From NCBI GenBank assembly GCA_964403725.1, contig CAYOHI010000001.1:46091-97979 (forward strand): a stretch of DNA of 51,889 nt, given 5' to 3'. The translations under genes were made by a program, and so were the position numbers. Shown here piece after piece: positions 5,059 to 51,871 of this stretch (the first letter of the stretch is position 1; every line of letters begins with the position of its first letter). The notes under the pieces are model-generated. The model was not told the origin of the DNA. It did not search any database and saw nothing but the letters and a program-made list of their open reading frames with translations. The DNA is from an uncultured Candidatus Saccharibacteria bacterium (lineage in GTDB: Bacteria; Patescibacteriota; Minisyncoccia; Portnoybacterales; UBA2143).

Positions 5059-5126
5059 CAGAAAAAATAAAGAAAAAATATTTACAAAAAGAGATTTATT
5101 AAAAGAAAATTCGTTCCGCGGACCCG

Positions 5127-7022: not shown

Positions 7023-7155
7023 TCTATTCCTCCTTTCCCTGAAATTTTTGACAGTTTTTCTGATTAATTTTAAAAGAACAATTTTAAATAACCTTAGTTT
7101 GTATCTAAATTTACCAAACTTGCTTCTTTTTAATTTTTTTCTTTTGTAACTCATG

Positions 7156-7230
7156 GGTCACCAAGGAGACTCGAACTCCCAACCAATCGCGCCACAAGCG
7201 ATCGCTCTTGCCAATTGAGCTATGGTGACC
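7156..7230 (-). tRNA. tRNA-His (anticodon GTG) with genome-encoded G-1
   Basis: The reverse complement folds as a cloverleaf: G(-1)+GTCACCA acceptor, TA, GCTC/GAGC D-stem, ATCGC-TTGTGGC-GCGAT anticodon arm (GTG), GGGAG-TTCGAGT-CTCCT T-arm, TGGTGAC and C73 pairing with G-1. CCA is not encoded. Confidence 0.9.
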
Positions 7231-19532: not shown

Positions 19533-19554
19533 TTGTTACTCGACTATGTAACAA
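19533..19554. promoter_or_regulatory. palindromic operator candidate in the TA promoter region
   Basis: TTGTTAC (19533-19539), 8-nt spacer, GTAACAA (19548-19554), located 19-40 nt upstream of the antitoxin ATG. It overlaps a -35-like TTGTTA on the minus strand. Confidence 0.45.
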
Positions 19555-19565
19555 TATGTATTAGA

Positions 19566-23188: not shown

Positions 23189-23193
23189 AAAAT

Positions 23194-35018: not shown

Positions 35019-35738
35019 ATGGATCTTATAATAACTATTTTCAATGAAAGCCTTTACCGTCCTTTGTTTAACGCCTTGGTTTGGCTTTATAATATAATTC
35101 CCGGAAACGACTTAGGTATCGCTATTATTGTCTTAACAGTAATAATCAGATTAATTCTCTATCCTTTATCCAAAAAAGCGATTCAATCGCAAAAAGCGAT
35201 TAATAAATTGCAGCCTAAAATGAAAGAGATTCAGAAGAAATATAAGAACAAGGAAGAACAGGCCAAAGCGATGATGGAGTTGTATCAGAAGCATAAGGTA
35301 AATCCGATGGCCGGTTGCTTGCCAATATTAATCCAATTGCCTCTTTTGATTGCTTTGTACCAAGTTTTCATTAATGGATTAAAGCCAGAGGCATTAAGCG
35401 CCTTATACAGCTTCATCCCGAGTCCAGAATCATTGAATGTAATGTTTTTAGGATTAATCGATCTCTCTCAAAGAAATATTTTCTTGGCATTATTAGCCGG
35501 TTTCTTCCAATTCATCCAGTCTAAGATGATTATGCCAAAGAATTTAAATACTAAGAAAGGCAAATCTGACAGTATGGATTTCGCATCGATAATGAGCAAG
35601 CAAATGCTGTATTTCATGCCTTTAATCACTATTTTTATTGCTTGGAGTCTGCCGGCTGCCCTACCTCTCTATTGGATAGTAATCACCTTATTCGGCATCC
35701 TGCAGCAACACACCACTAAAAGCGAAATTAAAAATTAA
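35019..35738 (+). CDS. yidC: membrane protein insertase YidC (short, Gram-positive-type)
   Basis: 239 aa with GIAIIVLTVIIRLILYPL, KVNPMAGCLPILIQLPLLIALY and PAALPLYWIV. Confidence 0.9.
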   Translation: MDLIITIFNESLYRPLFNALVWLYNIIPGNDLGIAIIVLTVIIRLILYPLSKKAIQSQKAINKLQPKMKEIQKKYKNKEEQAKAMMELYQKHKVNPMAGCLPILIQLPLLIALYQVFINGLKPEALSALYSFIPSPESLNVMFLGLIDLSQRNIFLALLAGFFQFIQSKMIMPKNLNTKKGKSDSMDFASIMSKQMLYFMPLITIFIAWSLPAALPLYWIVITLFGILQQHTTKSEIKN

Positions 35739-37897: not shown

Positions 37898-39140
37898 CTG
37901 GATCCTTCTCTTAGTTAACTACCTCCCCTTTCAGATAGCTCTGAATCCAAGGGTCGGTTTTGATTTGTCTTCCTTGCGCGTATTTATTCTGCTGTTATTT
38001 ATTTTTTCCTTAATAGAAATCTATTTAAAGAGAAAAAATCTTTACAATCTTCAATTTGCAGGATTGTTTTTGTTTTTAATCTTATCTGGCGTTTCTCTAT
38101 TCGGGGCAGAGAATATTTCCTGGGGATTGAGGAAAGTATTGTTCTTTGTCTCTGTTTTTCCCATGTATCTTTTAATTTTGTTTTTTGTTAATAATTATTT
38201 GAAGACTGATAAGATTATTAGGTTTTTATATATTTCTACGGGCTTATTTGCTTTTATTGGTTTAATTCAGTTCTTATCTCAATTTGTATTCAGTTTAGAG
38301 AGAGTTTATGAATTCTGGTCAATAAATGTCTTGCCGATTTTTTCCGGTTTTAATCTAGGGTCTATGATTTTAGCTTATCCTAGTTGGCTGGTTAATGTGG
38401 GAGGAGAGACGATAATGAGGGCTTTTTCTTTGTTTTCTGATCCCCATATGTTTTCTTTTTACTTAGGCTTGGTTTTGCCATTTTTTGTTTTTCTTTATTT
38501 CAAGGGGTTTAATAGGGTTGTTTTATATTCTATATATTTCTTAATATTCATTACTTTAACACTTACTTTTACAAGAGGTGCTTATTTGGCTATTATTATC
38601 ACTTTTTCTGCATTATTTCTTCTTTTATGGTGGATCAAAGAGAAGAAATTGGCTCTTTTGTTCATTTTATCATTATTGATTTTCATTATTCCGATTACTC
38701 CTGTTTCAGATAGGTTTTATTCATCTTTTGATTTAGATGAAGGCTCTAATGTAGGGAGATTGGAAATGTGGCAGCAGGCTGGAGAAACTGGGTTTGATTA
38801 TTTCTTCTCGGGTGTCGGTTTGGGTAATTATTCGCTTTCAGTCAATTCTGAACTTGATTACCGTAATCCTGTCACTGCTCATAATTTGTATCTGGATATT
38901 TTTTCTGAAATGGGCATATTTGCTCTATTAATCTTATTAATCCTTATTATTGGCACTATTTATCATTTATTTAAGAGAATTAATGGGGATAATGGTTATT
39001 TAGTTATTTCTTTAATTGGCTCACTAGTATATTTCTTGGTTCATAGTGTTTTTGAAACGGCTATTTACAGCCCGAGCGTTTTAGCTCTCTTAATGGTAAT
39101 TTTGGGGCTCTCATCATATGTTACAAAAGATAATCGATAA
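37890..39140 (+). CDS. O-antigen ligase/polymerase-like (Wzy_C domain) membrane protein
   Basis: 416 aa, polytopic. Central TFTRGAYLAII and the loop ...GRLEMWQQA...FFSGVGLGNY...AHNLYLDIFSEMG match the Wzy_C signature. Confidence 0.75.
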   Translation: MFNWILLLVNYLPFQIALNPRVGFDLSSLRVFILLLFIFSLIEIYLKRKNLYNLQFAGLFLFLILSGVSLFGAENISWGLRKVLFFVSVFPMYLLILFFVNNYLKTDKIIRFLYISTGLFAFIGLIQFLSQFVFSLERVYEFWSINVLPIFSGFNLGSMILAYPSWLVNVGGETIMRAFSLFSDPHMFSFYLGLVLPFFVFLYFKGFNRVVLYSIYFLIFITLTLTFTRGAYLAIIITFSALFLLLWWIKEKKLALLFILSLLIFIIPITPVSDRFYSSFDLDEGSNVGRLEMWQQAGETGFDYFFSGVGLGNYSLSVNSELDYRNPVTAHNLYLDIFSEMGIFALLILLILIIGTIYHLFKRINGDNGYLVISLIGSLVYFLVHSVFETAIYSPSVLALLMVILGLSSYVTKDNR

Positions 39141-40266
39141 TTTAATTTATTTGATAGTTTTCTCTCTGCCTCTATATCTGGTTAGTTTCAAGGTTTTTTG
39201 GGTGCCTTTTAATATTTTGGAAATATTGATCTGTGTTTTATTTATCTTTTGGGCTTTTAATTTTAAGGATAGATCTTTGTTCAATTCAAAGATTTTCTTG
39301 CCAATATTATTGATTCTTGTTGGTATAACTGTTTCTGTTTGGGTTTCAAATGATTTAGAGGTTAGTGCTGGCATCTGGAAGGGTTGGTTTATTGTTCCGA
39401 TGCTGTTTTTTATAGTACTTATTGACCGGGTTAAGAAAAGAGATCAGGTTAACAGGATTATTGTTAGCTTAACTTTATCGGGTTTAGTTGTGGCCTTAAT
39501 ATCTCTTTGGTATTGGTTGAGTGGCAATTTGACCTATGATGGAAGATTAAGCGGATTTTATCTTTCAGCTAATTTCTTAGCTATGTATTTGTCCCCTATC
39601 TTAATATTATCCCTGTATTTATTTTCTGTCTTTAAGGAGAGAAAATACAGGATAGGTCTGTTGTTTGTCTATTTTCTATTATCTTTTGTAATCTATTTGA
39701 CTTATTCTTATGGCGCTTGGCTGGGTCTTCTGATAGCTTTTCTTTTTATCTTATTAAAACAAAAAAACAAGAAAATCCTATTGATATTTTCTTTGTTGGT
39801 TATTCTGGTTTCTGTTATCCAGATTCCTAGTTACAAGTTTCAGGGTTTTTTGGATTTGTCTTATCCTTCTCTGCAGTCGCGCTTGGTTATTTGGCAAAGC
39901 GCTTTTGAAATATTGAAAGATAATCTTGTCTTTGGTATTGGACTGGGCATGTTTCAGGAATATTACTTGGCATATCAGGATATGTTTTTGCCTTATCCTG
40001 AATGGGCCGTACCCCAGCCTCATAATATTTTCTTGGCTTTCTGGCTGCAGGCTGGATTATTGGGCTTTGTCGGCTTTGTCTGGCTGTTAGTATATTTCTT
40101 TAAAAAAACAAACCCCAGTCATGTGCTAGGGTCTGTTCTAATAGGTCTTATGGTCTATATCTTAATTCACGGTCTGATTGATACCACTTATTTCAAAAAT
40201 GACTTATCAGTAATATTCTGGCTTGTTATAGCTCTAGGCTATAAAGCAGATTATCTGGCTGATTGA
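39118..40266 (+). CDS. second O-antigen ligase/polymerase-like (Wzy_C domain) membrane protein
   Basis: 382 aa, polytopic. SRLVIWQSAFEI...FGIGLGMF...PHNIFLAFWLQAGLLG. It overlaps the preceding gene by 23 nt. Confidence 0.75.
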   Translation: MLQKIIDNLIYLIVFSLPLYLVSFKVFWVPFNILEILICVLFIFWAFNFKDRSLFNSKIFLPILLILVGITVSVWVSNDLEVSAGIWKGWFIVPMLFFIVLIDRVKKRDQVNRIIVSLTLSGLVVALISLWYWLSGNLTYDGRLSGFYLSANFLAMYLSPILILSLYLFSVFKERKYRIGLLFVYFLLSFVIYLTYSYGAWLGLLIAFLFILLKQKNKKILLIFSLLVILVSVIQIPSYKFQGFLDLSYPSLQSRLVIWQSAFEILKDNLVFGIGLGMFQEYYLAYQDMFLPYPEWAVPQPHNIFLAFWLQAGLLGFVGFVWLLVYFFKKTNPSHVLGSVLIGLMVYILIHGLIDTTYFKNDLSVIFWLVIALGYKADYLAD

Positions 40267-41380
40267 CGAAAATCAGGTAATCTTCCAAAGGAGGTAAGAT
40301 TAATTCCTCTACATTATATATCTTTGTCTCTCCGAGTCCCTGGACTTCAAATATCTTAGTCATTTCTTCTGTTTCTAGGTTGATTCTCCAGAATTCATCA
40401 TTAAATGAAACTTTTTCTTTGTAATAGTCATCTGGCATGACAGCATCGTTGGAGATATTCTTCGGAATAGCGCAGAAAATCGTCCGGTTATCCTGGCTCC
40501 AGATGCATTTCTCTACTAAAGTGACAACATTTAACTCGCTAACAGTCTGGCCATCTAGGTCAGCTATTTTTAATTTCAGATTCTTGCCGTCACTGTCCGT
40601 TTCTGAATAAAGTATCTTATCCCCCATAGGTGACCATAAGGCTGATAAACCATAGGTTTCGTTGATAATTTTTTGGAAATCTCCAGTTGTTGGATTAATG
40701 ACATAGACTACGCTTTCAACAAGGCCGCTAGGCTTGTTTCTGATTGATACCTTATTGGCTACTGGCCACTCTACGATTAAATCCTTCATCCTTGTTTGGA
40801 AGATGGATTCCCAATTCGATCCATCTGGGTTAGCAATGCTGATATTGTTATCCTCAGTAACGGAATTATAGTATTGGTAAGCTATTTTGCTCTGATTTGG
40901 CGACCAGGTTACCCAGCGGACCTCTCCGAGTAAAGGAGTTGATATTTTCGTGTTGTAGTCATAAAGATATTTCTTAATCAATCCATTTTCATCAAAAAGA
41001 GCAATAACTTTATCCTTATCAGGAGACCAGATAGCTTTGATTAGATCACTTAGAACAATAGATGATGTTCTGGTCAGCTCAGCGCCATCAAGGTCCGATT
41101 CGAATACATTACCATTGCTTTTCGAGTAGTACCTGACTTTTTTACCATCTGTAACAGGACTCAAGACTGCCTCTTGGGAAATTTGTTTGAGTTTTCCTTC
41201 AATAGGAGTGTTATTTATTGGATCCGTGCTTGGATCAGAGATCGGTATCTGGCTGGGGTCGTCTGTTGTCGCAGTCGGGTCTGTTTCTTCGTCAGAAGAA
41301 AAGTAATTGTACGCGACCAGACCGGTAATGACCATAACCAAGGCTATTATTAGAATGATGAATATTTGTTTAAGTGACAT
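40226..41380 (-). CDS. membrane-anchored TolB-like beta-propeller (PD40 repeats)
   Basis: 384 aa with an N-terminal TM helix and repeated W-S-P motifs (IWSPDKDKV, VTWSPNQSKIAYQ, ALWSPMGDKILYS, CIWSQDNRTIF). Last gene of the T4SS-like operon. Confidence 0.65.
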   Translation of the reverse strand: MSLKQIFIILIIALVMVITGLVAYNYFSSDEETDPTATTDDPSQIPISDPSTDPINNTPIEGKLKQISQEAVLSPVTDGKKVRYYSKSNGNVFESDLDGAELTRTSSIVLSDLIKAIWSPDKDKVIALFDENGLIKKYLYDYNTKISTPLLGEVRWVTWSPNQSKIAYQYYNSVTEDNNISIANPDGSNWESIFQTRMKDLIVEWPVANKVSIRNKPSGLVESVVYVINPTTGDFQKIINETYGLSALWSPMGDKILYSETDSDGKNLKLKIADLDGQTVSELNVVTLVEKCIWSQDNRTIFCAIPKNISNDAVMPDDYYKEKVSFNDEFWRINLETEEMTKIFEVQGLGETKIYNVEELILPPLEDYLIFVNQPDNLLYSLEL

Positions 41381-41407
41381 ATATTTTTATTAATTAGTAT
41401 TTTGAAA

Positions 41408-41965
41408 TTATCTAGGTATACAGCAGCAAACGTTTGTGTTTGGCGGAGTGCAAAGTCCCTTTAGAGCAGCACAATCCGTAGCACAGTTTCCTGTAGTTCC
41501 ACCTTTTTTATGGAGATCAGTACATGCTGATGCTGATATAGGAGCGCAGATTTGGGGTGAAGGCGGAGCGGGCGGAGATGGCATCATAGTCACACTTGGC
41601 AGGTTAGGTGATTGATTCTGCAACAGTACAGGATTGATAGTATTAAGGATTAAGTAAGCTGCTAGTCCTAGTACTAATCCAGATAGAGCTCCGGTAATGT
41701 AGTCTTTAGCCTTGTCCTTGGAAGTGACTGTGTCTGAGAGCATATAGAGGAATCCTCCATAGACCAGCATGCCCAGTGCTGCTATGCCTACTGCACCCAG
41801 TCCTATGAAGTATATATAGCTCAGATACTGAGGCAATGTGAATGTAGTTGTTGGAGTTGTACCTGGGAGGGTTATCTCTACTTGGTAGCCGGCTGCCTGG
41901 ACATTAAAACAAATGAATAGCGAGAATGCTGCAATGATTAATATTTTTTTAAATTTTAAATTCAT
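41408..41965 (-). CDS. T4SS-type (VirB2/TrbC-topology) pilin with a Cys-rich C-terminal extension
   Basis: 185 aa with signal peptide ...NVQAAG and two hydrophobic helices separated by SDTVTSKDKAKDY. Then a PSPPAPPSPQ linker and a tail with 9 Cys ending VCCCIPR. Confidence 0.65.
   Translation of the reverse strand: MNLKFKKILIIAAFSLFICFNVQAAGYQVEITLPGTTPTTTFTLPQYLSYIYFIGLGAVGIAALGMLVYGGFLYMLSDTVTSKDKAKDYITGALSGLVLGLAAYLILNTINPVLLQNQSPNLPSVTMMPSPPAPPSPQICAPISASACTDLHKKGGTTGNCATDCAALKGLCTPPNTNVCCCIPR
41580..41893 (-). repeat. copy 2 of the 314-bp direct repeat (pilin module)
   Basis: See 27471..27784. The offset between copies is exactly 14,109 bp, in the same orientation. Confidence 0.9.
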
Positions 41966-41968
41966 ATT

Positions 41969-42661
41969 TTATGGAACTAAGAATACTTCAGCAGAAGCAC
42001 TATTCCTTTGAATCCGGTTATTCCTATTCTCTACCCAGACTTCTAGGGTCTGCCTGATGGTTTCATTAACCTTGCCTATCTTTATGGAGAGATCGTTGAA
42101 ATCAACGACATCTACTTGGGGAGCTATTTTCTGTCCAAATTGCCACTGGTATTCCAATTCGCTCAGATTAAAGATATTGAAGAAGAACGGTTGGGCTGTG
42201 AATTCTACTTCCTGGTCACCAGAGAGGTTATATTGCTCCAGGAATCCCAAGGCTGGACTTTTCAGCTTTATGACAATTTCAGGTAAACGGGCTTTTAGGA
42301 AGAGGTTTTTCGATGTTGCTATCTTGTAGTTGTTTCTATCTATGACTTCAACTCTAATTATATGGTCCTTGGTAATGCTTTCACTCATCTGGAATTTGAA
42401 ATTCTGTTTGCCAAGTCCTGATTCGTCTTGAATATGGTTATTCAAGAACCAGTTAAAAGTCAATTCTTCTGGGTTTAATCCCTTGGAATTAAATTGGGCA
42501 GCTACTTCTACATTGCTTCCCCTGCTAGGCAGAGCTGCTCCTCTGTAATCAAGGGGAACATAGGTGTCTGTTATCCAAGTCAAAGTCACTCCAGCAGCTT
42601 GAGCTGAAAAAGCGAAAGATAAACAAAGAATAGTTGGTAAGATGTAATGTTTTAATTTCAT
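41969..42661 (-). CDS. secreted hypothetical protein (230 aa)
   Basis: Signal peptide ILCLSFAFSAQAAG followed by beta-rich sequence. 4-nt overlap with the upstream gene. No family recognised. Confidence 0.55.
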   Translation of the reverse strand: MKLKHYILPTILCLSFAFSAQAAGVTLTWITDTYVPLDYRGAALPSRGSNVEVAAQFNSKGLNPEELTFNWFLNNHIQDESGLGKQNFKFQMSESITKDHIIRVEVIDRNNYKIATSKNLFLKARLPEIVIKLKSPALGFLEQYNLSGDQEVEFTAQPFFFNIFNLSELEYQWQFGQKIAPQVDVVDFNDLSIKIGKVNETIRQTLEVWVENRNNRIQRNSASAEVFLVP

Positions 42662-43068
42662 TTTTTAGCTATTTTCCCTAATTGAGTATTGTGTTCAGCA
42701 TACATGCTGATTAGGAATATGGTCCAAGTTGGTGAAAGATCGCCTATTCCCGGGAACATTTCTATCAGGAATGTTCCGCCAAATCTAGCTGAAGGGAATT
42801 TATGAAGGCGGATAAAGCACCATATTCCCAAGATTCCCGCAGTGCTTAAATCAAGTGCTCTGAAAAGGATCAAATCTAGTCCGAAATAGTCACAGGCGTC
42901 GTTGATCACCCCGATTGATCCGATAATGGCCCATTCAGCGCCCGTTATTTCACTAATTGACTGTCTTGATTTTTCTTTCAGTTTCCCTTTTATCTTTCCC
43001 TTAGCTTTTTTTTGAGTGTCTTTTCTTAATTGATTCAATTTGGCTAATCTTTCCGTGTAATCTGGCAT
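42658..43068 (-). CDS. small membrane protein (136 aa)
   Basis: Basic N-terminus followed by three hydrophobic segments. Packed between the VirB4 gene and the secreted protein gene. Confidence 0.55.
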   Translation of the reverse strand: MPDYTERLAKLNQLRKDTQKKAKGKIKGKLKEKSRQSISEITGAEWAIIGSIGVINDACDYFGLDLILFRALDLSTAGILGIWCFIRLHKFPSARFGGTFLIEMFPGIGDLSPTWTIFLISMYAEHNTQLGKIAKK

Positions 43069-43072
43069 GGTT

Positions 43073-44875
43073 TTAATAGGCAGTGCCTTCTCCTTTCATT
43101 TCTTCTTCCGCTAAATCTTTTTTAGCTTGTTCAATTTCCATCAATTGGGCTGGATCAGAGGTGATTACCTGGTCTTCAGTATATGAAGCAACGATTTTAA
43201 TGGCTACATGCTTTGATCCAGCAAAGAATATCCCCTCTCCCACAGCGCTCTCCAAAAGCATGTATTTTTCCTGGTCTGTTAGGTTGAATGTTTCCTTGAT
43301 TACATCAATAGCAGCCGGAGATTGTTTTAAAAGTAGTTGAATAGATGAGTTAGTTACAATCGGTTTGCCATATTTGGATTTCATGAAATCTGCTACGTCC
43401 TGGGTTATGGTAGTCAGTCCGAGATAGTATTTTCGGCATCTTTTAGCGATGCCGTACAAGAATGAGGCAGCATCGTCATTCTGCATCATGACCCAGGCTT
43501 CATCAACAACCATCATCCTTTTCTTTCTCTTAGAACGGATAATATTCCAGATATATCTTAGGATAATATACATGGCCAGTGGCCTCAATTCTTTTTCCAT
43601 ATCTCTGATGCTGAAAACGACTAGCTTCTTCCCTAATTCAACATTAGTTGGCTGGTTGAAGAAATTGGCATAGCTGCCAGAAATGAATTTTTCCAGTCTA
43701 GTTACCAAAGATTCTGTTCCAGTCATGCCCTTGAGGACTGTGTACAGGTCCTGCATCAAAGGAGGATTGACTTTGCTGAAATCAGATTCAGGGGTAATGT
43801 CTCTGGCGGCATAGGTTTCAGTCAGGGCCTTGTCGACGATAGCGTCTTCTTCAGGGGTCAGTCCGCCCAGCATTATCCTTAGAAGCCCGACTAGGTTAAT
43901 GACGTTGTTTCTCAATACGTCAGCTGGCTTTTCATCCGGCCCAGGAACCGGCAAGTCAAAAGGATTCAAGTGATGGGGAGAAGAAATTGATATATCAATA
44001 AAGGTGCCCCCTACTGTTTCAGCCAGGTATTTATATTCTTTTTCTGGGTCGATAATTAAAACTTCTGTATCCTGCATCAAGGAACGAAGAACTTCCAGTT
44101 TAATAGCATAAGATTTGCCGCTGCCTGATTTGGCGAAGACACAGGCATTCGCATTTTCCATGCCGAATCTGTCAAAAAGAATCAAGGAATTATTATGCCT
44201 GTTGATTCCATAAAGGATTCCCTTGTTCTCGCTCAAATCAGATGAAATGAAAGGGAAAGCAGCTGATAATGGTGCCGTATTGAAATTATTGTGGACATAG
44301 ATCTTATCTGATCCCAAAGGAAGAGTAGAAACGAAGCCTTGTTCCTGCTGGAAGACGGCTGGCTTGGCATAGATCATCTGGTTTTCCAAAAGAGCCCTGA
44401 TGCTATTCTCTATCTCATCCAATTGTTTGGGATTATCTGCGAAAAAAGTGACGTAAAGACCGAGCTTGAAGAGCTTCTCAGTCCCTTGCTGGAGGGTAGT
44501 TCTCAATTCTTCGATGCTTTGCAGGGCGGTTTCCAGCTTGGGATCGCGCACTTTTCCTTTTTCTGCCTGCATAGACATCTGTGATTGGACTTGGGCTGTC
44601 TTTTTAGTCAGTGTCTTCAAGGCGGCGTTAGTCTCGGCTGGGTGAATGAACATGGATATATTCGTTTCTTGGTCCAAGGTGATGACTGAGGATAGCCAGC
44701 CGGTATCCAAATTCTGGGGGTACGAGAAGACAAATATGGTCCGGCCATACTTCTCGCCGATCTGGATATAGTTTGAGTTGATTTGTAATCCGGCTGGAGC
44801 GATCAAATCAACCAAATCGGTTTCTTGGTGTGTTCCTTGAGGCGCTATTTGCTTTTTCTTGAATAAATTAAGCAT
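43073..44875 (-). CDS. VirB4/TrsE-type T4SS ATPase (ATPase body)
   Basis: 600 aa with Walker A FAKSGSGKSYAIK and Walker B RMMVVDEAW. The N-terminal segment LIAPAGLQINSNYIQIGEKYGRTIFVFSYPQNLDTGWLS is typical of Gram-positive VirB4 homologues. Confidence 0.85.
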   Translation of the reverse strand: MLNLFKKKQIAPQGTHQETDLVDLIAPAGLQINSNYIQIGEKYGRTIFVFSYPQNLDTGWLSSVITLDQETNISMFIHPAETNAALKTLTKKTAQVQSQMSMQAEKGKVRDPKLETALQSIEELRTTLQQGTEKLFKLGLYVTFFADNPKQLDEIENSIRALLENQMIYAKPAVFQQEQGFVSTLPLGSDKIYVHNNFNTAPLSAAFPFISSDLSENKGILYGINRHNNSLILFDRFGMENANACVFAKSGSGKSYAIKLEVLRSLMQDTEVLIIDPEKEYKYLAETVGGTFIDISISSPHHLNPFDLPVPGPDEKPADVLRNNVINLVGLLRIMLGGLTPEEDAIVDKALTETYAARDITPESDFSKVNPPLMQDLYTVLKGMTGTESLVTRLEKFISGSYANFFNQPTNVELGKKLVVFSIRDMEKELRPLAMYIILRYIWNIIRSKRKKRMMVVDEAWVMMQNDDAASFLYGIAKRCRKYYLGLTTITQDVADFMKSKYGKPIVTNSSIQLLLKQSPAAIDVIKETFNLTDQEKYMLLESAVGEGIFFAGSKHVAIKIVASYTEDQVITSDPAQLMEIEQAKKDLAEEEMKGEGTAY

Positions 44876-45512
44876 TTTCTTGTTTTTCTATTTTTGGATC
44901 TTCTTTGGCGCTTGGGTTATAGAATTTATAGAAGAGTTCTATCAATTCTTCCGTGTTCAGAGGGACTGTCTTGATGCCCAATCCCCTGAGGCCGGTAGAG
45001 ATATATTCCACTCTTTGCCAAAGATTATTCTTTAATTCTTGGAATGATTCCTCTTTGGTAGCTTCTTTCTCTTTTTTAGTGAAGATATTACTGAAGAATC
45101 CTCCTTTCTTTATAGCTGACGGACTGTACGGGACAATTATGTAAAAGGATTTAGTCATGACGTTGGTCATCTGGGTCAATCCTTTGACAAAATTGATATA
45201 TTCGTTGGTTTGAATTCTTAAAAGCTCGTTTTCTTGCTGGGTTTGTCTATGTTCTAGGGTCTGGATATATGGGGTGATGTCAAATTTGCGTGAAGAAGTC
45301 ATTATTTGAAGGGAAAAATCAAGTGAATTTAAGAAATCCTGATAGCGGTAAATGATAGCATCTCTTTCCTCAGTTGATTTTAGGGCAAAGTTTATGCTGG
45401 TAGCCATCAAAACAGAACGCAGTCCTTTGTTCTTAAGGACTACAACATCATCTTTAATTTCCTTTACTTCCAAATGCTTTTGGATTGAAGCTGCGTTTAA
45501 TTTGTTAGCCAT
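44868..45512 (-). CDS. VirB4 N-terminal-domain-like protein (separate ORF)
   Basis: 214 aa. VVVLKNKGLRSVLMATSINFALKSTEERDAIIYRYQDFLNSLDFSLQI follows the pattern of the first ~200 aa of long VirB4 proteins (from memory). It overlaps the ATPase ORF by 8 nt in another frame. Confidence 0.5.
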   Translation of the reverse strand: MANKLNAASIQKHLEVKEIKDDVVVLKNKGLRSVLMATSINFALKSTEERDAIIYRYQDFLNSLDFSLQIMTSSRKFDITPYIQTLEHRQTQQENELLRIQTNEYINFVKGLTQMTNVMTKSFYIIVPYSPSAIKKGGFFSNIFTKKEKEATKEESFQELKNNLWQRVEYISTGLRGLGIKTVPLNTEELIELFYKFYNPSAKEDPKIEKQENA

Positions 45513-45513
45513 A

Positions 45514-45798
45514 CTATTTTTTCCCTCTTTTCCATAGGTATAGTTTTGGTTTAGTCATATATTTTATCAGTGAACCCAAGAGATATACGAATGGTCTTCC
45601 ATTAACTTTGTAAAAAGCTAATCCTAAGACTAGGATAGCGATAGGAACAGCGATAATGATGAAAAGAGTTAATTTGAGATAGAACCAAAGCATAGCCAGG
45701 ACACCAACTCCGCCTAATAGATACAGGAATTGCTTGAGAGTCAGGGGTCCGACTATCTTGTCTTCTATATCGATAAATTGAGGAACTCTAAATCTCAT
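45514..45798 (-). CDS. PrgI-family (VirB3-like) small membrane protein
   Basis: 94 aa. MRFRVPQFIDIEDKIVGPLTLKQFLYLLGG followed by two TM helices, the hallmark of the PrgI family found next to VirB4 in Gram-positive T4SS. Confidence 0.7.
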   Translation of the reverse strand: MRFRVPQFIDIEDKIVGPLTLKQFLYLLGGVGVLAMLWFYLKLTLFIIIAVPIAILVLGLAFYKVNGRPFVYLLGSLIKYMTKPKLYLWKRGKK

Positions 45799-45800
45799 AT

Positions 45801-46301
45801 TTATTCTCCTTTCAGGTCAACAATATTTCCATTAAGCTGAGGCTTTGGCTCGACTGGCTCTTGGTAATTATTAACTGGTTCCGGCTTTGGCTCTTCTTTT
45901 TGTATTTCTTGTTTTGGCTGCTCTTGCCCTTTGGGCCATTCTGAAATTTGATGGACTTTCTTTAGGCTCTCTTGGGCTGATAGGAATATTTGTTGATTGA
46001 CATCGCGGGCCAGTTGCCTGGCAGCTGATTCTTCTAGGGTGCACTTGTCTTGGAGCGTCTTAACGAAGTCAGTTATTTTGGTTTCACCCAAGAAGATCAT
46101 GCCGATTGTATGAGAAGCCCACCAAATCTGATTGCTATCTAAGTTATTCTTTTGTCCTGTTTGATGTATCTTATCGGCAGTCTCAATGCTAAACATCATC
46201 TGACGCAAGTCAGTTGGCAATTGAGACCATTTGATATATCTTTGTTTGATCAAAGGGTCTTTTATGGATTGGATATTTTTAATTTGATTTGGAGTAAGCA
46301 T
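45801..46301 (-). CDS. hypothetical protein (166 aa) with a Pro/Glu/Gln-rich tail
   Basis: In-operon ORF. The C-terminus is low-complexity (PKGQEQPKQEIQKEEPKPEPVNNYQEPVEPKPQ). No family recognised. Confidence 0.5.
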   Translation of the reverse strand: MLTPNQIKNIQSIKDPLIKQRYIKWSQLPTDLRQMMFSIETADKIHQTGQKNNLDSNQIWWASHTIGMIFLGETKITDFVKTLQDKCTLEESAARQLARDVNQQIFLSAQESLKKVHQISEWPKGQEQPKQEIQKEEPKPEPVNNYQEPVEPKPQLNGNIVDLKGE

Positions 46302-46309
46302 AATTTATA

Positions 46310-48199
46310 TTAAGCTGTTGAAAATGGTGCTCCTTGTTTTGGTTGATTTTTAACATCTCCAAAGAGTGCTTTGCCAGCAGTGCTGTCAAGATATTTTTCA
46401 ATATCAGCTCGAAAGCTGCCTTTTTTCTTATCAATAATTTCTTTTTTGACTTTAATAAATAGATCGGCATTATCTTCAGCCATCTTTTCTAAATGATTCT
46501 TCTTCCATTTGCCTTTATCCATAAGTTCTTTTTCGATTGCTTTCATAACATCATCATTAATATATTTTTCTTGGAGATTCTCCATATCTTTGGGCTTAAC
46601 ACCAGAGACAACCTTACTAATTGCTTCATCTTTGCTGAGTTTTTTATTCTTGTCATCTTTGTCTGTAAAGCCCATTAGAGGCGCAAGGTCAGGTCTGTAT
46701 TTGGTGATTTCGCTAGCATCACCATGCATCTTTTTAAGGAAGTCAATTTTTTCCTGAGCTTTACTTCCAGAATCCTTAAATCCTCCTTTTTTAGCTAGTT
46801 CGGCAATAGCAGCTGCTTTTCTAATTCTATCTTCTTGGGTGTATGTCCCTTGATTGGCCATTATATTCAAATCATCAGTAGTACGCTCAGAAATCTTTTT
46901 GCGCTCTTCTTTGATTTTTTCAGCCTGATCAGAAGCATACTTGCCAGGTCCGCCTATGGCTCGGCCAAGTACTGGTGTTTTTTCTGCTTTCTTCATAGCC
47001 CAGCTCTTTATCTTGTTAGTTTCAGGGAATGCTTTTCCTAAAATAGGTACTTTTCTAGCTAATCCAGCAGCGCCTCCGGCAGTGGCCTTTGTTCCCCGCC
47101 AAGTGCCTTTGCCAGCCGATCTGCCGATTGATTTAGAAAAATTAATTGCTCCATTAGCTCCATAAACACTCATTTTCTGAGCAGCTATCAATCCGCCAAA
47201 GAGGACGCCGATAATTACAATGAATTGCATAAGGGCTGAAGGAGTTGATGCTAAAGCAACAAAAAGAGTTTCCTTAAACCCGCTAGCATTGACGATATTT
47301 TCCATTTCAGTACTGACAATATTGCTGAATTTACCGGCTTGTCCTGCTTGGATAGCTAAATATACGAAGAACATATATATTGGAGCAAAGAAGGTCCACT
47401 TCAGGAAAGTATTCCACCATTGTTTGAATAGATGGCTAGTACCCGGTATTATCCAAAAAAACCAAGCAAGTGGGGCTAGAATTAATAAGATCCAAATCAT
47501 AATCATTCGTATAATCAAGAAGAAAGCGCCGAGGAGCAAGGCTAAACTAGCGGCTAAGATTAGGATTGTTCCAAAGAATATAGAGAAGGCCAACATTATC
47601 ACTCCAGCTACTCCCTCCGCTATTTTTTCCGCCGCATTGGCATCTGGATTTAGTTTTGGTACTTGTTGGATATTGAATACGCTGGCTATTTGTGCTCCAA
47701 CTCCTGAACTTCCTTTTATTTCTTCATAGAAGAAGTTTGTCAAAATTTGTGAAAAATCAATCACTACTCCAGCAATAACTAAACTGAAATTAATTAATAA
47801 AGCGGCCACAATCAATTTCCATAGAATTTGCTTCATGCCGTAGGTTTCAACCCTTAAGATGGTAGCAAAAGCAATTGCTAATAGGACAAGAACAAAGAAC
47901 ATATTAGCCAAGTCTCTAGTAATAGTCCAGCCAGTCTGGACAAATCCAGATTTGGTAAATTTTTCTATACCGAAGGTCATTTCCAGAATCATTCCTGAAA
48001 GCCAAAACAGAATAGAAACAAAACTATGGATTATCGCGCCAATGCGGGTAATTATCCAAGCTAGGATATCAAAGCCAATATCTATGCCAAATAAATCAGC
48101 ATGAGCTGGTCTAGCACTAAAAACAAAAACACCTAAAGAACTAATTACAAGAATTAGGAATAGGCTCAGAAAAAGTTTTTTGTGTTTTAAATTAAACAT
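46310..48199 (-). CDS. VirB6/TrbL-like polytopic membrane protein with a long hydrophilic C-terminal tail
   Basis: 629 aa. About 7-8 TM helices in the first ~360 aa, then a ~260-aa Lys/Glu-rich soluble region. Its position next to VirB3/VirB4 supports the assignment; the sequence-level assignment is weak. Confidence 0.55.
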   Translation of the reverse strand: MFNLKHKKLFLSLFLILVISSLGVFVFSARPAHADLFGIDIGFDILAWIITRIGAIIHSFVSILFWLSGMILEMTFGIEKFTKSGFVQTGWTITRDLANMFFVLVLLAIAFATILRVETYGMKQILWKLIVAALLINFSLVIAGVVIDFSQILTNFFYEEIKGSSGVGAQIASVFNIQQVPKLNPDANAAEKIAEGVAGVIMLAFSIFFGTILILAASLALLLGAFFLIIRMIMIWILLILAPLAWFFWIIPGTSHLFKQWWNTFLKWTFFAPIYMFFVYLAIQAGQAGKFSNIVSTEMENIVNASGFKETLFVALASTPSALMQFIVIIGVLFGGLIAAQKMSVYGANGAINFSKSIGRSAGKGTWRGTKATAGGAAGLARKVPILGKAFPETNKIKSWAMKKAEKTPVLGRAIGGPGKYASDQAEKIKEERKKISERTTDDLNIMANQGTYTQEDRIRKAAAIAELAKKGGFKDSGSKAQEKIDFLKKMHGDASEITKYRPDLAPLMGFTDKDDKNKKLSKDEAISKVVSGVKPKDMENLQEKYINDDVMKAIEKELMDKGKWKKNHLEKMAEDNADLFIKVKKEIIDKKKGSFRADIEKYLDSTAGKALFGDVKNQPKQGAPFSTA

Positions 48200-48208
48200 T
48201 TATATATA

Positions 48209-48889
48209 TTAACGACCGCAGCAAACGACACAACAGGAACAGCAACATAATCCTCCACAATGCCATACTCTTCCATATGGTGTATCTGTATAGCATGGTC
48301 CCTCAGCATTATCGCAAGTGCATCCTGGCCCTGAAAAAGCTAATGTGTTTTCACAAAGAGAAGTTGAGTAGTCATCTTCCCAGAATAATTCTTTGTTAGC
48401 TTCATAATACGCCATCCCTTCCTTAAAATCTTCTGATAAAAAGTATTCTTCCCAAGAGAGAAAACCAACCATGGCCAGAGCTTCTTCTAAATATTCTTCA
48501 TTAGCAGAACAAAGAGAGCATGTTTTTGAATCTTGAGGCTGATAACTAGATGGACTTAATGATAGGCTTTTAATTTCTGATAAAATACTTTCTGTTGTTA
48601 AATATTCAACACTATTAATTAAATCTGATGATGTTGGTGTTTCTGGATTGTTAATTTCTTGTTCTTGTTTATTAGAATTATCCTGGCTTTTGGTTAATTT
48701 TTCTGTTTTTTGGGATTTGGTGCTTAAAATGCTTTTGAATAAGCTTACTTTTTCAGTTTCTTCTTGATTAGTATTAGTATTTACTTCCATTGGCTTTTCA
48801 TCATTTGTCCATCCATATGAGAATAAGATTATTGCTAAACTGCCAAATAAAATAATAACAGGAATAAATTTTTCTTTAAAAGAAATCAT
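48209..48889 (-). CDS. membrane-anchored protein with a poly-cysteine C-terminus
   Basis: 226 aa with an N-terminal TM helix, an Asn/Gln/Thr/Ser-rich linker, and a C-terminal domain with 16 Cys ending HCGGLCCCSCCVVCCGR. Confidence 0.55.
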   Translation of the reverse strand: MISFKEKFIPVIILFGSLAIILFSYGWTNDEKPMEVNTNTNQEETEKVSLFKSILSTKSQKTEKLTKSQDNSNKQEQEINNPETPTSSDLINSVEYLTTESILSEIKSLSLSPSSYQPQDSKTCSLCSANEEYLEEALAMVGFLSWEEYFLSEDFKEGMAYYEANKELFWEDDYSTSLCENTLAFSGPGCTCDNAEGPCYTDTPYGRVWHCGGLCCCSCCVVCCGR

Positions 48890-48893
48890 ATAT

Positions 48894-50762
48894 TTATCGT
48901 GTTATTGGCGGTACCCATGCATTACAAGTGTCTTCTCTGCTTTGTGCATCTGCCTTTAATTGCGCAGCTGCTTCTATTTCAGCATATAGGGTGCCTGGAT
49001 CTGGGAATGTTGGATTACCTCTGGCTGTCATTAAATTCTGAGCCAAAGTGACAATAGTTGAATTGGAATTAAGAGTTTCTGTAGTCAGTCCGCCCAGATC
49101 TGTTGAAGAGACAGCGCCGTTAATGTCTGTTATTAAGGCCTGAGTGGCTGTAATTAAATTATTCTTAGCTGTATTCATTTCTGTGGTGGCAGTCTGCATA
49201 GCAGTGGTAGTAGCTCGTCCACCTGTTTGTTGATAAACAGTAAGCCAATTATTTGCCTTGTTAACTAATTCTTGAGCTAGAACAGAGGTACTTCTGGTAT
49301 CATTGATCAAAGCGATAGTATCGGGAATATCAACGGTTTCCATAGTATTAATCATGCTGTTGTATCTTGGAATTATGGTATTGTTAATCTCATTTTTCTT
49401 GCCTTGAGCCCAAGTAATATAACTAGCATATGGAGGAACATTAGTACAGGCGTTAATGACAAGATCCAAATCAGGAAAGGCTCCCTGATAAGCTGGTCCA
49501 ATAGATCTCATGACTGCCAGGTTTGTCTGCTGTTCGTTAAGTAGCTGATTATTGATGTTGTTATCAAGTGCAGCTAATTGGACATCTAGAGCAGTTGCAT
49601 CAACTTTATTCTGTTCAGCATCTTGGGGGGAGATGGTTTGAGGAATACCAGCACTAGCGCCAACATCACCAAAATTAGGTTTTGTCTGAGGATCAGCTTT
49701 GAGAAGTCCCATTCCTTCTTTCATTATTCGATTCATCAAGGCATTGATTACAGCTTGGAGATATACTTGATAAGGGCCGGCCTTAGCCGTAGCTCCGGCA
49801 ATAGCTGCGTTCATCTGATCCATCCAGTTATTAACAGTCTTGTTGACAGTCTTGTTGATTGTGTTAGCTGGTGTCCAGGTCTCACATTGCAGGGCACATG
49901 GCTTAACAACTCCTGATGTTTGCCAATCTCCTTTACAAGCACTAGGTAAAGGAGGAATGCCTCTGACATCTGTTATCCTCTGAACAACCGTACGCCTAGC
50001 ATCATACCAAATACAGTTTCTGGCTGGTAACCAGCCTTCATCAGAATCTGCTTCAATATTTCTCATGGTGTCATTAATGACCTTAGTTTTCTCATCTTGA
50101 GCCATTAACAGGGAGCCATAGAAATTGTTTTGCGGTTTTGATAATTCAATCCATCCTTTCCATCCCCCTTGGCTAAAGTCTTGGTAAAAATTATCAAGGT
50201 TGCCAATCATTTGCGAGAAAGTACATTGAGCTTTGGCATCAAAGGTTGGTACATCCAACAGAGCAATCTTAATATCTAAATCAAAAGACTGACATAGGAG
50301 GCCTAATCCTAAATACTGGTCTATGAAATTGCCAGCTACATTGTCTATTGCGTCTTCGAGATAGCCGCCAAATCCTTCAGTCATAAATCTGGGCTTTTGT
50401 CCATTTTCAATCCAATTAACAATATCATTAGTCAGTTCAGTCAAGAGCTGATGGATCATCATATTCAAAAGAACGCTAGCTGCCCATTTAGCTATTTCAC
50501 CAGCATTGGCAGCCACTAATTCAGCAACTGTAGTAATGGCCTCACCTAAGGCTCCTGATTCATATGCTTTTTGAATTGCTCGCCATCCTATTTGAAGAGC
50601 TGATTGCTTTTCTTCAGGTACTGATGTAGCTACAGAAACAGGACATAGAGCTTGTGCTTTTTTAGGATAAAACAAAACCGGTCCAGCTATTAAGCTGATC
50701 ATACAAATACTTAAAATTAAAGCAGTGCTTTTTTTTAGGTATGAGTTTTGGAAAATGATCAT
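48894..50762 (-). CDS. large secreted or anchored hypothetical protein (622 aa)
   Basis: N-terminal hydrophobic segment ALILSICMISLIAGPVLF. Asn/Thr/Ala-rich, with scattered Cys pairs. No family recognised. Confidence 0.55.
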   Translation of the reverse strand: MIIFQNSYLKKSTALILSICMISLIAGPVLFYPKKAQALCPVSVATSVPEEKQSALQIGWRAIQKAYESGALGEAITTVAELVAANAGEIAKWAASVLLNMMIHQLLTELTNDIVNWIENGQKPRFMTEGFGGYLEDAIDNVAGNFIDQYLGLGLLCQSFDLDIKIALLDVPTFDAKAQCTFSQMIGNLDNFYQDFSQGGWKGWIELSKPQNNFYGSLLMAQDEKTKVINDTMRNIEADSDEGWLPARNCIWYDARRTVVQRITDVRGIPPLPSACKGDWQTSGVVKPCALQCETWTPANTINKTVNKTVNNWMDQMNAAIAGATAKAGPYQVYLQAVINALMNRIMKEGMGLLKADPQTKPNFGDVGASAGIPQTISPQDAEQNKVDATALDVQLAALDNNINNQLLNEQQTNLAVMRSIGPAYQGAFPDLDLVINACTNVPPYASYITWAQGKKNEINNTIIPRYNSMINTMETVDIPDTIALINDTRSTSVLAQELVNKANNWLTVYQQTGGRATTTAMQTATTEMNTAKNNLITATQALITDINGAVSSTDLGGLTTETLNSNSTIVTLAQNLMTARGNPTFPDPGTLYAEIEAAAQLKADAQSREDTCNAWVPPITR

Positions 50763-51733
50763 TGTTGACGACTTTCTAAATCGTTTTGCATCTCATTTAA
50801 AAGTTGGGCAAATTGTTCAGCAGTTTCTTTGAATTTTTCTACAACTAGCAAGCCCTTGAGAGGATCATCTGTATACGTTGGCAAATGCTGATAAATCTTA
50901 TGGTAATTCCAATAAACTGTTAAAAATTTCCTATGGACATCTAGCCAATCCAAGGGTACCGGTACATTCAACATCATCTTGTAAGCTTGGAGGTATGAAT
51001 TGGTTAGGCAATAACTCATTGAAAAATCACTGTATTGAATGCTGTCATTTATGATTTCAGCGTCATTCTTATGATTATTAGGATCCTGACATGATTCAAT
51101 CTCGCTTAACTTATCACTTACTTCTTTGCTGTAGTTCTTAATAGTAGTCAGATTATTCTCTGGTGTTAATTGGAATTCATGTTGTTCCTTTTCAAAAGCT
51201 GGAACGAATTCATAGATAAAATTGGTAGATGCTTTTTGTAAGGCATCAACAACTTTTTCATCCATAGCTTCAGTTAAAGATTCTTCAAATGAATCAATAT
51301 CATTGCCGGTAACTGAAATTGACTCGAATTTCATCTGATTAGCTAGAATGTATGTCAGGGTCTGAGTTAGGTTTCCTGGCTGAGGTCTGATTGGCTGATT
51401 AAGAACAGTTCCGTCATCAAGTCTGTCATCAGGAGAAGGAATAGTTGGGCTGTATCCGGCGGCCACCTCTTCCCCATCAAGATATCCATCGCCATCAGTA
51501 TCAGGATTATTAGGATCAGTTCCTTGGATACTCTCTTCCCAACCACTTAGACCATCATAGTCTAGATCATCAATGATTTTCTTATCTTGTATTTGTTGAG
51601 CTATTTGTTCTAGTAAATTGGCTTTACTGATTCTGCTTTGAAGAATCAGATAGGTGCCAATAATCGTGCTGCTTACCAAAACCAAAACGGCCACAACAAT
51701 AACTATTTTTTTGGAGGATTTTTGTGGTTTCAT
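50759..51733 (-). CDS. membrane-anchored protein with thrombospondin type-3-like calcium-binding repeats
   Basis: 324 aa with TM helix IVIVVAVLVLVSSTIIGTYLIL and DYDGLSGWEESIQGTDPNNPDTDGDGYLDGEE (TSP3-type D-x-D-x-D-G repeats). First gene of the operon. Confidence 0.6.
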   Translation of the reverse strand: MKPQKSSKKIVIVVAVLVLVSSTIIGTYLILQSRISKANLLEQIAQQIQDKKIIDDLDYDGLSGWEESIQGTDPNNPDTDGDGYLDGEEVAAGYSPTIPSPDDRLDDGTVLNQPIRPQPGNLTQTLTYILANQMKFESISVTGNDIDSFEESLTEAMDEKVVDALQKASTNFIYEFVPAFEKEQHEFQLTPENNLTTIKNYSKEVSDKLSEIESCQDPNNHKNDAEIINDSIQYSDFSMSYCLTNSYLQAYKMMLNVPVPLDWLDVHRKFLTVYWNYHKIYQHLPTYTDDPLKGLLVVEKFKETAEQFAQLLNEMQNDLESRQQ

Positions 51734-51753
51734 TTGTATTAATATTACTAATT

Positions 51754-51782
51754 ATTATACATCAATTTCAAATATTTCTCAA
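51754..51782 (-). promoter_or_regulatory. sigma70-like promoter of the T4SS-like operon
   Basis: On the minus strand: TTGAGA (51782-51777), 17-nt spacer, TATAAT (51759-51754), 20 nt upstream of ATG 51733. Confidence 0.55.
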
Positions 51783-51841: not shown

Positions 51842-51871
51842 TTGACAGAATGGATATTTATGTGGTATAAT
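51842..51871 (+). promoter_or_regulatory. consensus promoter firing out of the window (divergent from the T4SS-like operon)
   Basis: TTGACA (51842-51847), 18-nt spacer, TGgTATAAT (TATAAT 51866-51871). Confidence 0.5.

Follow-up and report, generated by a model that had tools for sequence, protein, structure and literature searches.

The stretch analyzed here, hereafter the window, comprises 51,889 nucleotides (nt) of the forward strand of contig CAYOHI010000001.1 (positions 46,091 to 97,979; GenBank assembly GCA_964403725.1), from an uncultured bacterium deposited as Candidatus Saccharibacteria whose genome is Paceibacteria/Portnoybacteria-like. The open reading frame (ORF) listing of the window contains, toward its end, a minus-strand cluster of twelve intact ORFs, g1 to g12, packed at 40226-51733 and encoding a predicted type IV secretion system (T4SS). 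Read from the promoter-like motif onward, the features of this operon are as follows:

51754-51782, minus strand: sigma-70-like promoter motif TTGAGA-17-TATAAT, consensus match 11/12
50759-51733, minus strand: g1, 324 amino acids (aa), predicted TSP3 anchor (Pfam TSP3_bac)
48894-50762, minus strand: g2, 622 aa, Cys-rich domain and predicted helical stalk (AlphaFold2; no family match)
48209-48889, minus strand: g3, 226 aa, predicted membrane-anchored protein with poly-Cys tail (alignment; no family match)
46310-48199, minus strand: g4, 629 aa, polytopic protein of putative VirB6/TrbL type (PF04610 via orthologues and consensus)
45801-46301, minus strand: g5, 166 aa, helical domain and GNIVDLK motif (alignment; no family match)
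45514-45798, minus strand: g6, 94 aa, predicted PrgI/VirB3 (PF12666)
44868-45512, minus strand: g7, 214 aa, TrsD-like (NCBIfam TrsD, VirB4_plasma)
43073-44875, minus strand: g8, 600 aa, predicted VirB4 ATPase (P-loop_TraG; PDB 4AG5)
42658-43068, minus strand: g9, 136 aa, small protein with basic N-terminal tail (alignment; no family match)
41969-42661, minus strand: g10, 230 aa, predicted secreted protein with immunoglobulin (Ig)-like repeats (profile against PDB)
41408-41965, minus strand: g11, 185 aa, putative VirB2-like pilin (PF18895)
40226-41380, minus strand: g12, 384 aa, predicted membrane-anchored TolB-type (PD40) beta-propeller (profile against PDB)

The junctions from g1 to g12 measure -4, +4, +9, +8, +2, +1, -8, +4, -4, +3 and +27 nt, in agreement with an earlier annotation made from the letters and ORF translations of this DNA (the sequence-only reading), which had described gaps of 27 nt or less with several overlaps of 4-8 nt. 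Its count of a twelve-gene operon holds for the ORFs, but the products it named total eleven (four with an assigned function and seven without), the 214-aa gene at 44868-45512 having been omitted. The promoter that it placed ahead of the operon can be kept in part. The motif TTGAGA-17-TATAAT is present at 51782-51754, stops 20 nt ahead of the g1 start codon and is the top minus-strand match of the region; because promoter-like sites in the region are no commoner than in shuffled sequences (36 vs 34), it is a plausible rather than a demonstrated promoter of the operon.

For comparison, related loci were collected in a VirB4-seeded scan with one genome per species, from which the best 80 loci were taken. 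The g8 product is predicted to be a monoderm-type VirB4 ATPase. It carries the Walker A motif GSGKSY and the Walker B motif MMVVDEAW, matches the Pfam families P-loop_TraG (1.8e-26) and CagE_TrbE_VirB (2.7e-7), and in the PDB matches the Thermoanaerobacter VirB4 structure 4AG5 (6.6e-46) and TrwK (6.8e-7). Its top plasmid relatives are CD1110-family VirB4 proteins of Firmicutes and Actinobacteria, at 28-35% identity. The product of g6, which has two transmembrane-like segments, is assigned to the PrgI family, which in monoderm T4SSs corresponds to VirB3, by its match to PF12666 (4.7e-12, 46.7 bits, cutoff 27). Next to them, g7 overlaps g8 by 8 nt and encodes a TrsD-like protein paralogous to the N-terminal domain of VirB4, with matches to NCBIfam TrsD (6.9e-7) and to model residues 102-288 of VirB4_plasma (2.7e-9) that both lie far under the curated cutoffs, and with PF26593 (TraC-like) in the precomputed Pfam annotation. 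A frameshifted or split VirB4 as the explanation of g7 and g8 was ruled out, because the g7 counterpart stands as a separate gene of ~215-235 aa in 76/80 related loci and g7 matches the TrsD family.

Two further components were assigned at the family level. The g4 product has ~7 transmembrane segments in aa 1-345, followed by a Lys/Glu-rich hydrophilic C-terminal region. Nine of 39 orthologues match PF04610 (best 2.1e-6), and the family consensus matches the same profile at 1.4e-5 (25.4 bits, cutoff 25.9) over positions 17-200 of 215, which argues for a VirB6/TrbL-type protein of the 'extended' kind; the full-length family profile searched against the PDB recovered just low-complexity Lys/Glu-rich proteins and was uninformative. 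The g11 product is built of a signal peptide, a two-helix core (aa ~25-129), a Pro-rich linker and a C-terminal mini-domain with nine cysteines (41411-41578). Orthologues of g11 reach up to 43.5 bits against PF18895, well over its cutoff, and g11 itself matches the NCBIfam pilin-like model Mbov_0395 at 0.0028; these family relationships point to a Sec-type VirB2-like T4SS pilin.

The operon is not a chance arrangement, because its order and gene sizes recur in ~20 independent genomes. In these, with VirB4 proteins 70-91% identical, g1 to g12 are followed by Wzy-like genes, a flippase gene, yidC and dnaA. All of the 80 VirB4 loci lie in metagenome-assembled genomes of Patescibacteria, a few of them with automatic labels outside the Candidate Phyla Radiation (CPR); the closest named loci are from Portnoybacteria, and those farther away from Moranbacteria and other Parcubacteria. 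Wherever the contig reaches far enough, the core VirB6...PrgI-TrsD-VirB4 was found in essentially all 80 loci. VirB4 identity across them is 51-91%, against at most 35% for the top non-CPR plasmid matches, figures that serve, in place of a tree, as a proxy for placement within the Patescibacteria VirB4 clade. Family hidden Markov models (HMMs) recovered g4 in 35/48 loci with sufficient upstream sequence, and the pilin and g12 in 33/45 and 26/45 loci, respectively, with sufficient downstream sequence. Behind VirB4, the Ig-repeat protein (g10), the pilin and the TolB-like propeller (g12) form a triad that is conserved far outside the lineage of the window, in metagenome loci L086-L160, and this wide conservation suggests that the three act together.

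The surroundings of the cluster are ordinary chromosome of a small-genome bacterium. Its neighbours include dnaN (31710-32813), dnaA (32989-34350), which lies 5.9 kb from g12, and yidC (35019-35738), and the window also holds genes for a class A penicillin-binding protein, tyrosyl- and arginyl-tRNA synthetases, RuvB, the delta subunit of DNA polymerase III and a PilB-type ATPase. Directly downstream of the cluster are two Wzy/O-antigen-ligase-like genes and a flippase gene. The first of these converges on the operon (39118-40266, plus strand), its 3' end overlapping that of g12 by 41 nt at 40226-40266, and no terminator-like hairpin was seen between the two. Cluster GC content (0.38-0.41) is like that of most of the window. 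Contigs with an identical g1 reach 10 kb beyond the window end (L081) and carry, upstream of g1, two small ORFs, ksgA, a gene for a UvrD helicase and type IV pilus genes (pseudopilins, PilC, PilB). On the plus strand, a perfect TTGACA-18-TATAAT site with an extended -10 TG is located at 51842-51871, 60 nt upstream of the operon -35, and is probably the promoter of ksgA and the divergent small ORFs in L081.

The 40 window ORFs scanned and the further 10 kb, ~62 kb in all, yielded no relaxase, no VirD4-type coupling protein and no integrase. The sole T2SSE-family ATPase of the window (580 aa) has an MshEN domain and is of the PilB type, not a VirB11. No tRNA gene flanks the cluster, the only one in the window (tRNA-His, 7155-7229) lying 33 kb off; attachment-site (att) repeats were outside this search. 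An integrative conjugative element was ruled out by synteny, by the flanking genes and by the lack of an integrase and of a flanking tRNA.

Much of the sequence-only reading is borne out by these results. Its VirB4-type ATPase carries both of the motifs it had quoted and matches P-loop_TraG and 4AG5, its PrgI/VirB3-like protein scores well above the PF12666 cutoff, and its polytopic VirB6-like protein and two-helix pilin gain support at the family level (PF04610 in orthologues and consensus; PF18895 at 25.2 bits, with orthologues well above cutoff). It had named a lack of significant T4SS-family matches for the VirB3, VirB6 and pilin candidates as evidence that would speak against the system, and all three families were matched. 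The TrsD-like g7 had escaped it. The scan of the 40 ORFs agrees with its report of no VirD4, relaxase or VirB11 in the window, and the relaxase, VirD4 and integrase that, had they flanked the cluster, it would have taken to mark an ordinary mobile element or plasmid transfer module are all lacking from the 10 kb beyond the window end. The twelve-gene order, whose conservation it had proposed to check, recurs in the ~20 related Patescibacteria genomes described above.

This kind of system has been described before. In Ca. Southlakia epibionticum, transposon sequencing (Tn-seq) showed that the T4SS locus, pilins included, is essential for epibiotic growth, and the lack of a coupling protein and relaxase was noted (Wang et al., 2023, PMC10633639). 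A survey of 3,035 Patescibacteria genomes found VirB4 in 2,417, forming a monophyletic clade nested in MPF-FATA, usually together with TrsD, PrgI/VirB3, VirB6 and VirB2-like pilins, the cluster often being near dnaA, dnaN and ksgA (Quinonero-Coronel et al., 2025, PMC12102498). In a review from 2025 they count as an accepted subtype of T4SS (PMC12857230). The operon in the window resembles the surveyed systems and the Southlakia locus (SEML1_0004-0019) in having VirB4, an adjacent TrsD-like protein, PrgI/VirB3, a VirB6-like protein and PF18895 pilin(s), and in its chromosomal position near dnaA and dnaN with no relaxase or coupling protein nearby. With Southlakia it also shares Ig-like secreted proteins beside VirB4. 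In contrast, the Southlakia locus encodes a pair of large VirB6-like proteins, an array of six pilins, an NTF2-like (VirB8-like) protein and, just downstream of virB4, wall hydrolases with lysozyme/CHAP and DD-peptidase (M15) domains, whereas the operon studied here has a single in-cluster pilin, no stand-alone hydrolase, no NTF2-like protein recognised by sequence and an accessory set of its own (g1, g2, g3, g5, g9 and g12).

The system is derived from the monoderm (MPF-FATA) conjugation machinery, represented by the trs genes of pGO1/pSK41, prg/pcf of pCF10 and the CD1110-type genes of Clostridioides CTn2, whose VirB4 proteins are closest to g8. The order PrgI-TrsD-VirB4 mirrors TrsC-TrsD-TrsE of pGO1/pSK41, and the outer-membrane core proteins VirB7, VirB9 and VirB10 are lacking in both. 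Unlike those systems, the operon shows by sequence no relaxase, type IV coupling protein (T4CP), VirB1-type hydrolase, VirB8-like protein or PrgB-type adhesin, includes a VirB2-like pilin that they lack, and is not on a mobile element.

Seven products had been left without a T4SS role in the sequence-only reading. Four of them (g2, g3, g5 and g9) indeed match no family, but g1, g10 and g12 can be described. The g1 product matches TSP3_bac at 3.1e-8 (33.8 bits, cutoff 25; family consensus 1e-15), with one transmembrane-like segment at aa 10-28, two calcium-binding TSP3 repeats at aa ~54-93 and a helical C-terminal domain; its PDB profile match is restricted to the repeat region (Bap, 2.5e-7), and the family was found by HMM in 20/48 loci with sufficient upstream sequence. 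The g10 product has an N-terminal signal-like segment, and its family profile matches phage T4 Hoc in the PDB (7.8e-5, aa 56-206), in line with a secreted protein of Ig-like beta-sandwich repeats. A membrane-anchored TolB-type beta-propeller is predicted for g12, whose family profile matches TolB in the PDB (8.7e-11) and NCBIfam propeller_TolB (1.1e-7), with a PD40 match on the family consensus.

The g2 product has no Pfam, NCBIfam or PDB sequence match, and its ~50 homologues are all unnamed proteins. A hydrophobic segment at the N-terminus precedes a Cys-rich domain that is conserved (aa ~100-350) and a long three-helix-bundle stalk (aa ~375-615), the AlphaFold2 model having a per-residue confidence (pLDDT) >90 for aa 380-615 and low values in the N-terminal half. 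An assignment by Foldseek was dropped, as nothing but generic or designed bundles of helices came up (E >= 0.003) and the top 50 contained no VirB5/TraC-like protein. For g3, a membrane-anchored protein with a C-terminal poly-Cys tail (...CCCSCCVVCCGR), searches of Pfam and NCBIfam, also with the family consensus, gave no family match, and the tail itself matched neither any known sorting signal nor a metal-binding family. Its motif, CCCxCCxxCCG[RI], is kept at or near the C-terminus in three related loci (L001:4547-5113, L002:6244-6822 and L015:5499-6455); in most relatives the position is empty and g2 abuts g4. The gene is a clade-specific accessory one.

The g5 product, a helical domain with no transmembrane segment and presumably cytoplasmic, matched nothing in any family library, including searches with the family consensus and with the larger g5-domain proteins of distant loci. 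In the alignment, its C-terminal peptide (E)GNIVDLK is conserved after a low-complexity linker, its place being taken by a terminal DPYRE(P/Q)I in more distant homologues; the peptide looks like a short docking motif. The family HMM placed g5 between VirB6 and PrgI in 21/48 loci, sometimes within larger proteins, and in Moranbacteria-type loci the domain sits inside proteins of 400-690 aa in the same operon slot; the family is conserved and T4SS-linked. The product of g9 has a basic N-terminal tail, hydrophobic stretches and, by alignment, the conserved motifs W..RL.KFP and P.WT.F; it had no match in Pfam or NCBIfam, or with the family consensus, and its family was found in 18/45 loci with sufficient downstream sequence.

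A further gene of the window, overlooked by the sequence-only reading, belongs to the same pilin family as g11:

27044-27850, minus strand: second VirB2-like pilin, 268 aa (g11-family HMM, 1.2e-57)

It lies 13.5 kb from the operon, its start overlapping the end of tyrS by 4 nt. A 323-nt block with 91% identity is common to the two pilin genes (41575-41897 and 27466-27788, both minus strand) and corresponds to the mature pilin core. Its edges are sharp, identity falling to background in the signal-peptide region (47%) and the C-terminal region (33%). Two near-identical cores in one genome suggest gene conversion, and the pattern looks like either that or a cassette exchange in which the cores are kept compatible while the tails differ. 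The operon allele (g11) bears a Cys-knot tail and the second allele a peptidase-like tail.

This tail, the C-terminal 140 aa of the second pilin (27047-27466), is covered by no Pfam model. Searched with phmmer against the PDB, the domain gave top matches that were all Hedgehog N-domains, aligned on the zinc-site motif and by themselves not significant; its family profile matched the Sonic hedgehog (Shh) N-domain at 4.4e-6, with all of the top 24 matches Hedgehog proteins. The AlphaFold2 model (pLDDT 93, predicted TM-score (pTM) 0.87) gave the same result in Foldseek, where the first 38 matches were Hedgehog N-domains (E 6e-5 to 6e-3, probability 1.00, TM-score ~0.54), followed by VanXYc, LdcB, MepA and VanY. 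In an alignment of 30 members, E55, H63, D75, E108 and H136 (domain numbering) are invariant and H68 nearly so. H63, H68, D75 and E108 align to H135, H141, D148 and E177 of Shh; the pairing of H136 (PHFSV, vs HCSV in Shh) with H183 is by motif, the profile alignment stopping earlier. The residues of a zinc site predicted from sequence (the H-x6-D motif, a third His and the catalytic Glu) are all present. Sequence and model together predict a zinc peptidase of the Hedgehog/DD-peptidase fold (LAS-type), which differs from classical LAS proteins in lacking the first His of H-x-H and in having extra conserved cysteines. As in the bacterial Hedgehog-like proteins of some Rhizobium species, which carry the domain behind three-transmembrane N-termini (Roelink, 2018, PMC6027127), the domain follows a transmembrane N-terminus; unlike in known Hedgehog/LAS proteins, the N-terminal partner is a T4SS VirB2-like pilin core. 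A literature search found no paper describing a pilin-Hedgehog/DD-peptidase fusion. Compared with Southlakia, where the DD-peptidase domain is in a wall hydrolase, this genome has a domain of that fold fused to a pilin paralogue.

The fusion recurs elsewhere. A word-indexed search with the pilin C-terminal domain gave one relative and an exhaustive search was required, which recovered at least 525 representative clusters (50% identity) with the domain, nearly always at the extreme C-terminus; among 56 sampled members, 48 have the PF18895 pilin core ahead of it. A metagenome scan for the Hedgehog-like domain returned 80 loci. In 21 of the 36 such loci with >4.5 kb of upstream sequence, VirB4 ends at most 4 kb upstream on the same strand, and in those 21 the peptidase-tailed pilin sits between g10-like and g12-like genes, that is, in the g11 slot, a place that such a pilin takes in many other Patescibacteria. 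A g10-like gene is immediately upstream of the pilin in 23/44 loci and a g12-like gene immediately downstream in 28/52. The 84 loci closest to the window showed no Hedgehog-like domain by HMM, which suggests that in the lineage of the window the operon pilin is the short Cys-rich-tailed form and the peptidase-tailed allele lies elsewhere. In-operon pilin tails of the relatives (L001-L080) are very variable, ranging from none in proteins of 120-129 aa to a 6-Cys mini-domain (C-x4-C-x3-C-x3-C...C-x-C), a 32-Cys tail (L010) or larger domains. LAS peptidase tails had been suspected from motifs in L016, L031 and L060 and were dropped, having no support from Pfam or from the Hedgehog-like domain HMM.

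From these observations we tentatively propose, at a little under even confidence, that the T4SS pilin is a modular carrier in which a conserved VirB2-like core is combined with exchangeable C-terminal domains, a zinc peptidase being one common choice. A filament of such subunits would display a peptidoglycan-cutting enzyme at the site of host contact; alternatively, the peptidase would be freed by C-terminal processing, as in the maturation of RP4 TrbC. Either way the domain would also supply the missing VirB1 function. That pilin tails in general, whether Cys-knot or zinc peptidase, act on peptidoglycan while displayed or after cleavage is speculative.

Taken as a whole, the cluster is probably a chromosomal, origin-proximal Patescibacteria T4SS without DNA-processing genes, used for host contact and for protein display or delivery, and with a modular pilin. 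By analogy with established T4SS biology, VirB4, tethered to the membrane through PrgI and VirB6 and partnered by TrsD, would extract the inserted pilin and polymerise it into a filament crossing the wall. The anchored extracellular products g1, g2, g3, g10 and g12 would form a wall-spanning scaffold or adhesive surface and so take over what VirB1 and VirB8, neither of them recognised here, do elsewhere. The machine would serve contact with a host cell, and protein display or delivery onto it, rather than conjugation; we favor this role because of the lack of DNA-processing genes and the Southlakia genetics. A contact, pilus or effector machine had likewise been preferred to conjugation in the sequence-only reading, and this agrees with published inference (PMC10633639, PMC12102498), which is still inference.

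Several points weigh against this interpretation. The g4 product of the window has by itself no Pfam match and g11 scores 1.4 bits under the PF18895 cutoff (1.8e-5, 25.2 bits, cutoff 26.6), so that the VirB6 and pilin calls rest on the family level. Neither a VirB1-type hydrolase nor a VirB8-like (NTF2-fold) protein was matched by sequence among the twelve products, fold modelling having covered g2 only. The scaffold role of g1, g2, g3, g10 and g12 is drawn from location and predicted topology, and the pilus and any substrate in this organism are predictions from sequence. The 140-aa tail domain might keep its pilin from polymerising, or might be cleaved from it. Finally, the visible DNA amounts to 52 kb plus 10 kb, and a coupling protein and relaxase could sit elsewhere in the genome.

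If they did, the operon could be part of a working conjugative system for DNA export, its relaxase, coupling protein and oriT (origin of transfer) encoded elsewhere on the chromosome. The homology of its VirB4 to MPF-FATA conjugative ATPases would fit, as would the occurrence of VirD4-type homologues in 2,918 Patescibacteria genomes, mostly distant from virB4 (PMC12102498). However, relaxases occur in just 103 of the 3,035 surveyed genomes, and the t4cp homologue of S. epibionticum is non-essential whereas its T4SS genes are essential (PMC12102498). Together with the lack of a relaxase or T4CP within ~62 kb, a position in conserved housekeeping synteny beside dnaA rather than in a mobile element, and the VirB2-like pilin that monoderm conjugative systems lack, this makes conjugation quite unlikely. 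A DNA importer, pulling in a neighbour's DNA as a nucleotide source for a cell unable to make its own, in the manner of archaeal Ced or Helicobacter ComB, is slightly less improbable, though still unlikely. Archaeal Ced (PMC9905601) is a minimal set of VirB4-like and VirB6-like proteins and a VirB2-like pilin without relaxase or coupling protein; the operon core, with VirB4, VirB6, a small VirB3-like protein and a VirB2-like pilin, matches it in composition. In addition, 37 of the VirB4 proteins from Patescibacteria group with those of archaea (PMC12102498), and the UvrD-type helicase gene lies 1.5 kb upstream of the operon. Against import, no sequence affinity to Ced was seen, the nearest non-CPR relatives of g8 being conjugative VirB4 ATPases of Firmicutes and Actinobacteria, and the Pfam and NCBIfam scans found no DNA-binding or nuclease domain among the operon products. 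In S. epibionticum, moreover, DNA is taken up via type IV pili and ComEC, and deletion of comEC ended competence but not viability, while the T4SS remained essential (PMC12857230).

Decay of an integrated conjugative element into a functionless remnant would account for the canonical components that were not recognised (VirB1, VirB8, VirD4 and relaxase), but is hardly credible. None of the twelve tightly packed ORFs is broken, their order and sizes persist while VirB4 identity drops from 91% to ~50% over the 80 genomes, and the cluster has neither an integrase nor a flanking tRNA gene and does not stand out in composition (GC 0.38-0.41). This conservation pattern already contradicts a remnant, and the homologous system of S. 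epibionticum is essential (PMC10633639). A host-contact T4SS thus remains the reading we prefer.

As such, the operon is a further instance of a system that specialists deem central to the epibiotic life of Patescibacteria, and it leaves that picture unchanged. The sequence-only reading was correct in its interpretation but overstated its novelty, since the system, with its location close to dnaA, was already on record for ~2,400 Patescibacteria genomes. Added here are the accessory set of the Paceibacteria/Portnoybacteria type, the conserved group of three genes behind VirB4 (Ig-repeat protein, pilin, TolB-like propeller) and the frequent presence of a predicted zinc peptidase of the Hedgehog/DD-peptidase fold on the pilin. 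It is the pilin-peptidase architecture that deserves follow-up: if true, it would suggest that the mechanism includes cleavage of the host wall (or the own wall) at the pilus, offer a concrete, testable effector for the Patescibacteria T4SS and widen the range of bacterial Hedgehog-like domains.

Other features were noted around the operon. There are two type IV pilus gene sets, one with the MshEN PilB-type ATPase gene at 15958-17700 (plus strand) and the other the PilB-PilC-pseudopilin cluster (L081:1-6611), 3.4-10 kb upstream of the T4SS operon and beyond the window end. A run of ATP-grasp genes at 22511-27053 (plus strand), comprising an ATPgrasp_ST gene with a Zn_protease domain and two more, follows a gene for a 7TM_transglut membrane protein and may be a peptide-modification or ligation module. 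The 509-aa product of 19533-21062 (plus strand) has two lamin-tail domains and a PKD domain and is probably a surface protein. A 305-aa ORF (6237-7154) with no family match abuts the tRNA-His gene, which is on the minus strand, and a tmRNA gene at 4680-5059 (plus strand) encodes the tag AAPAYAVA.

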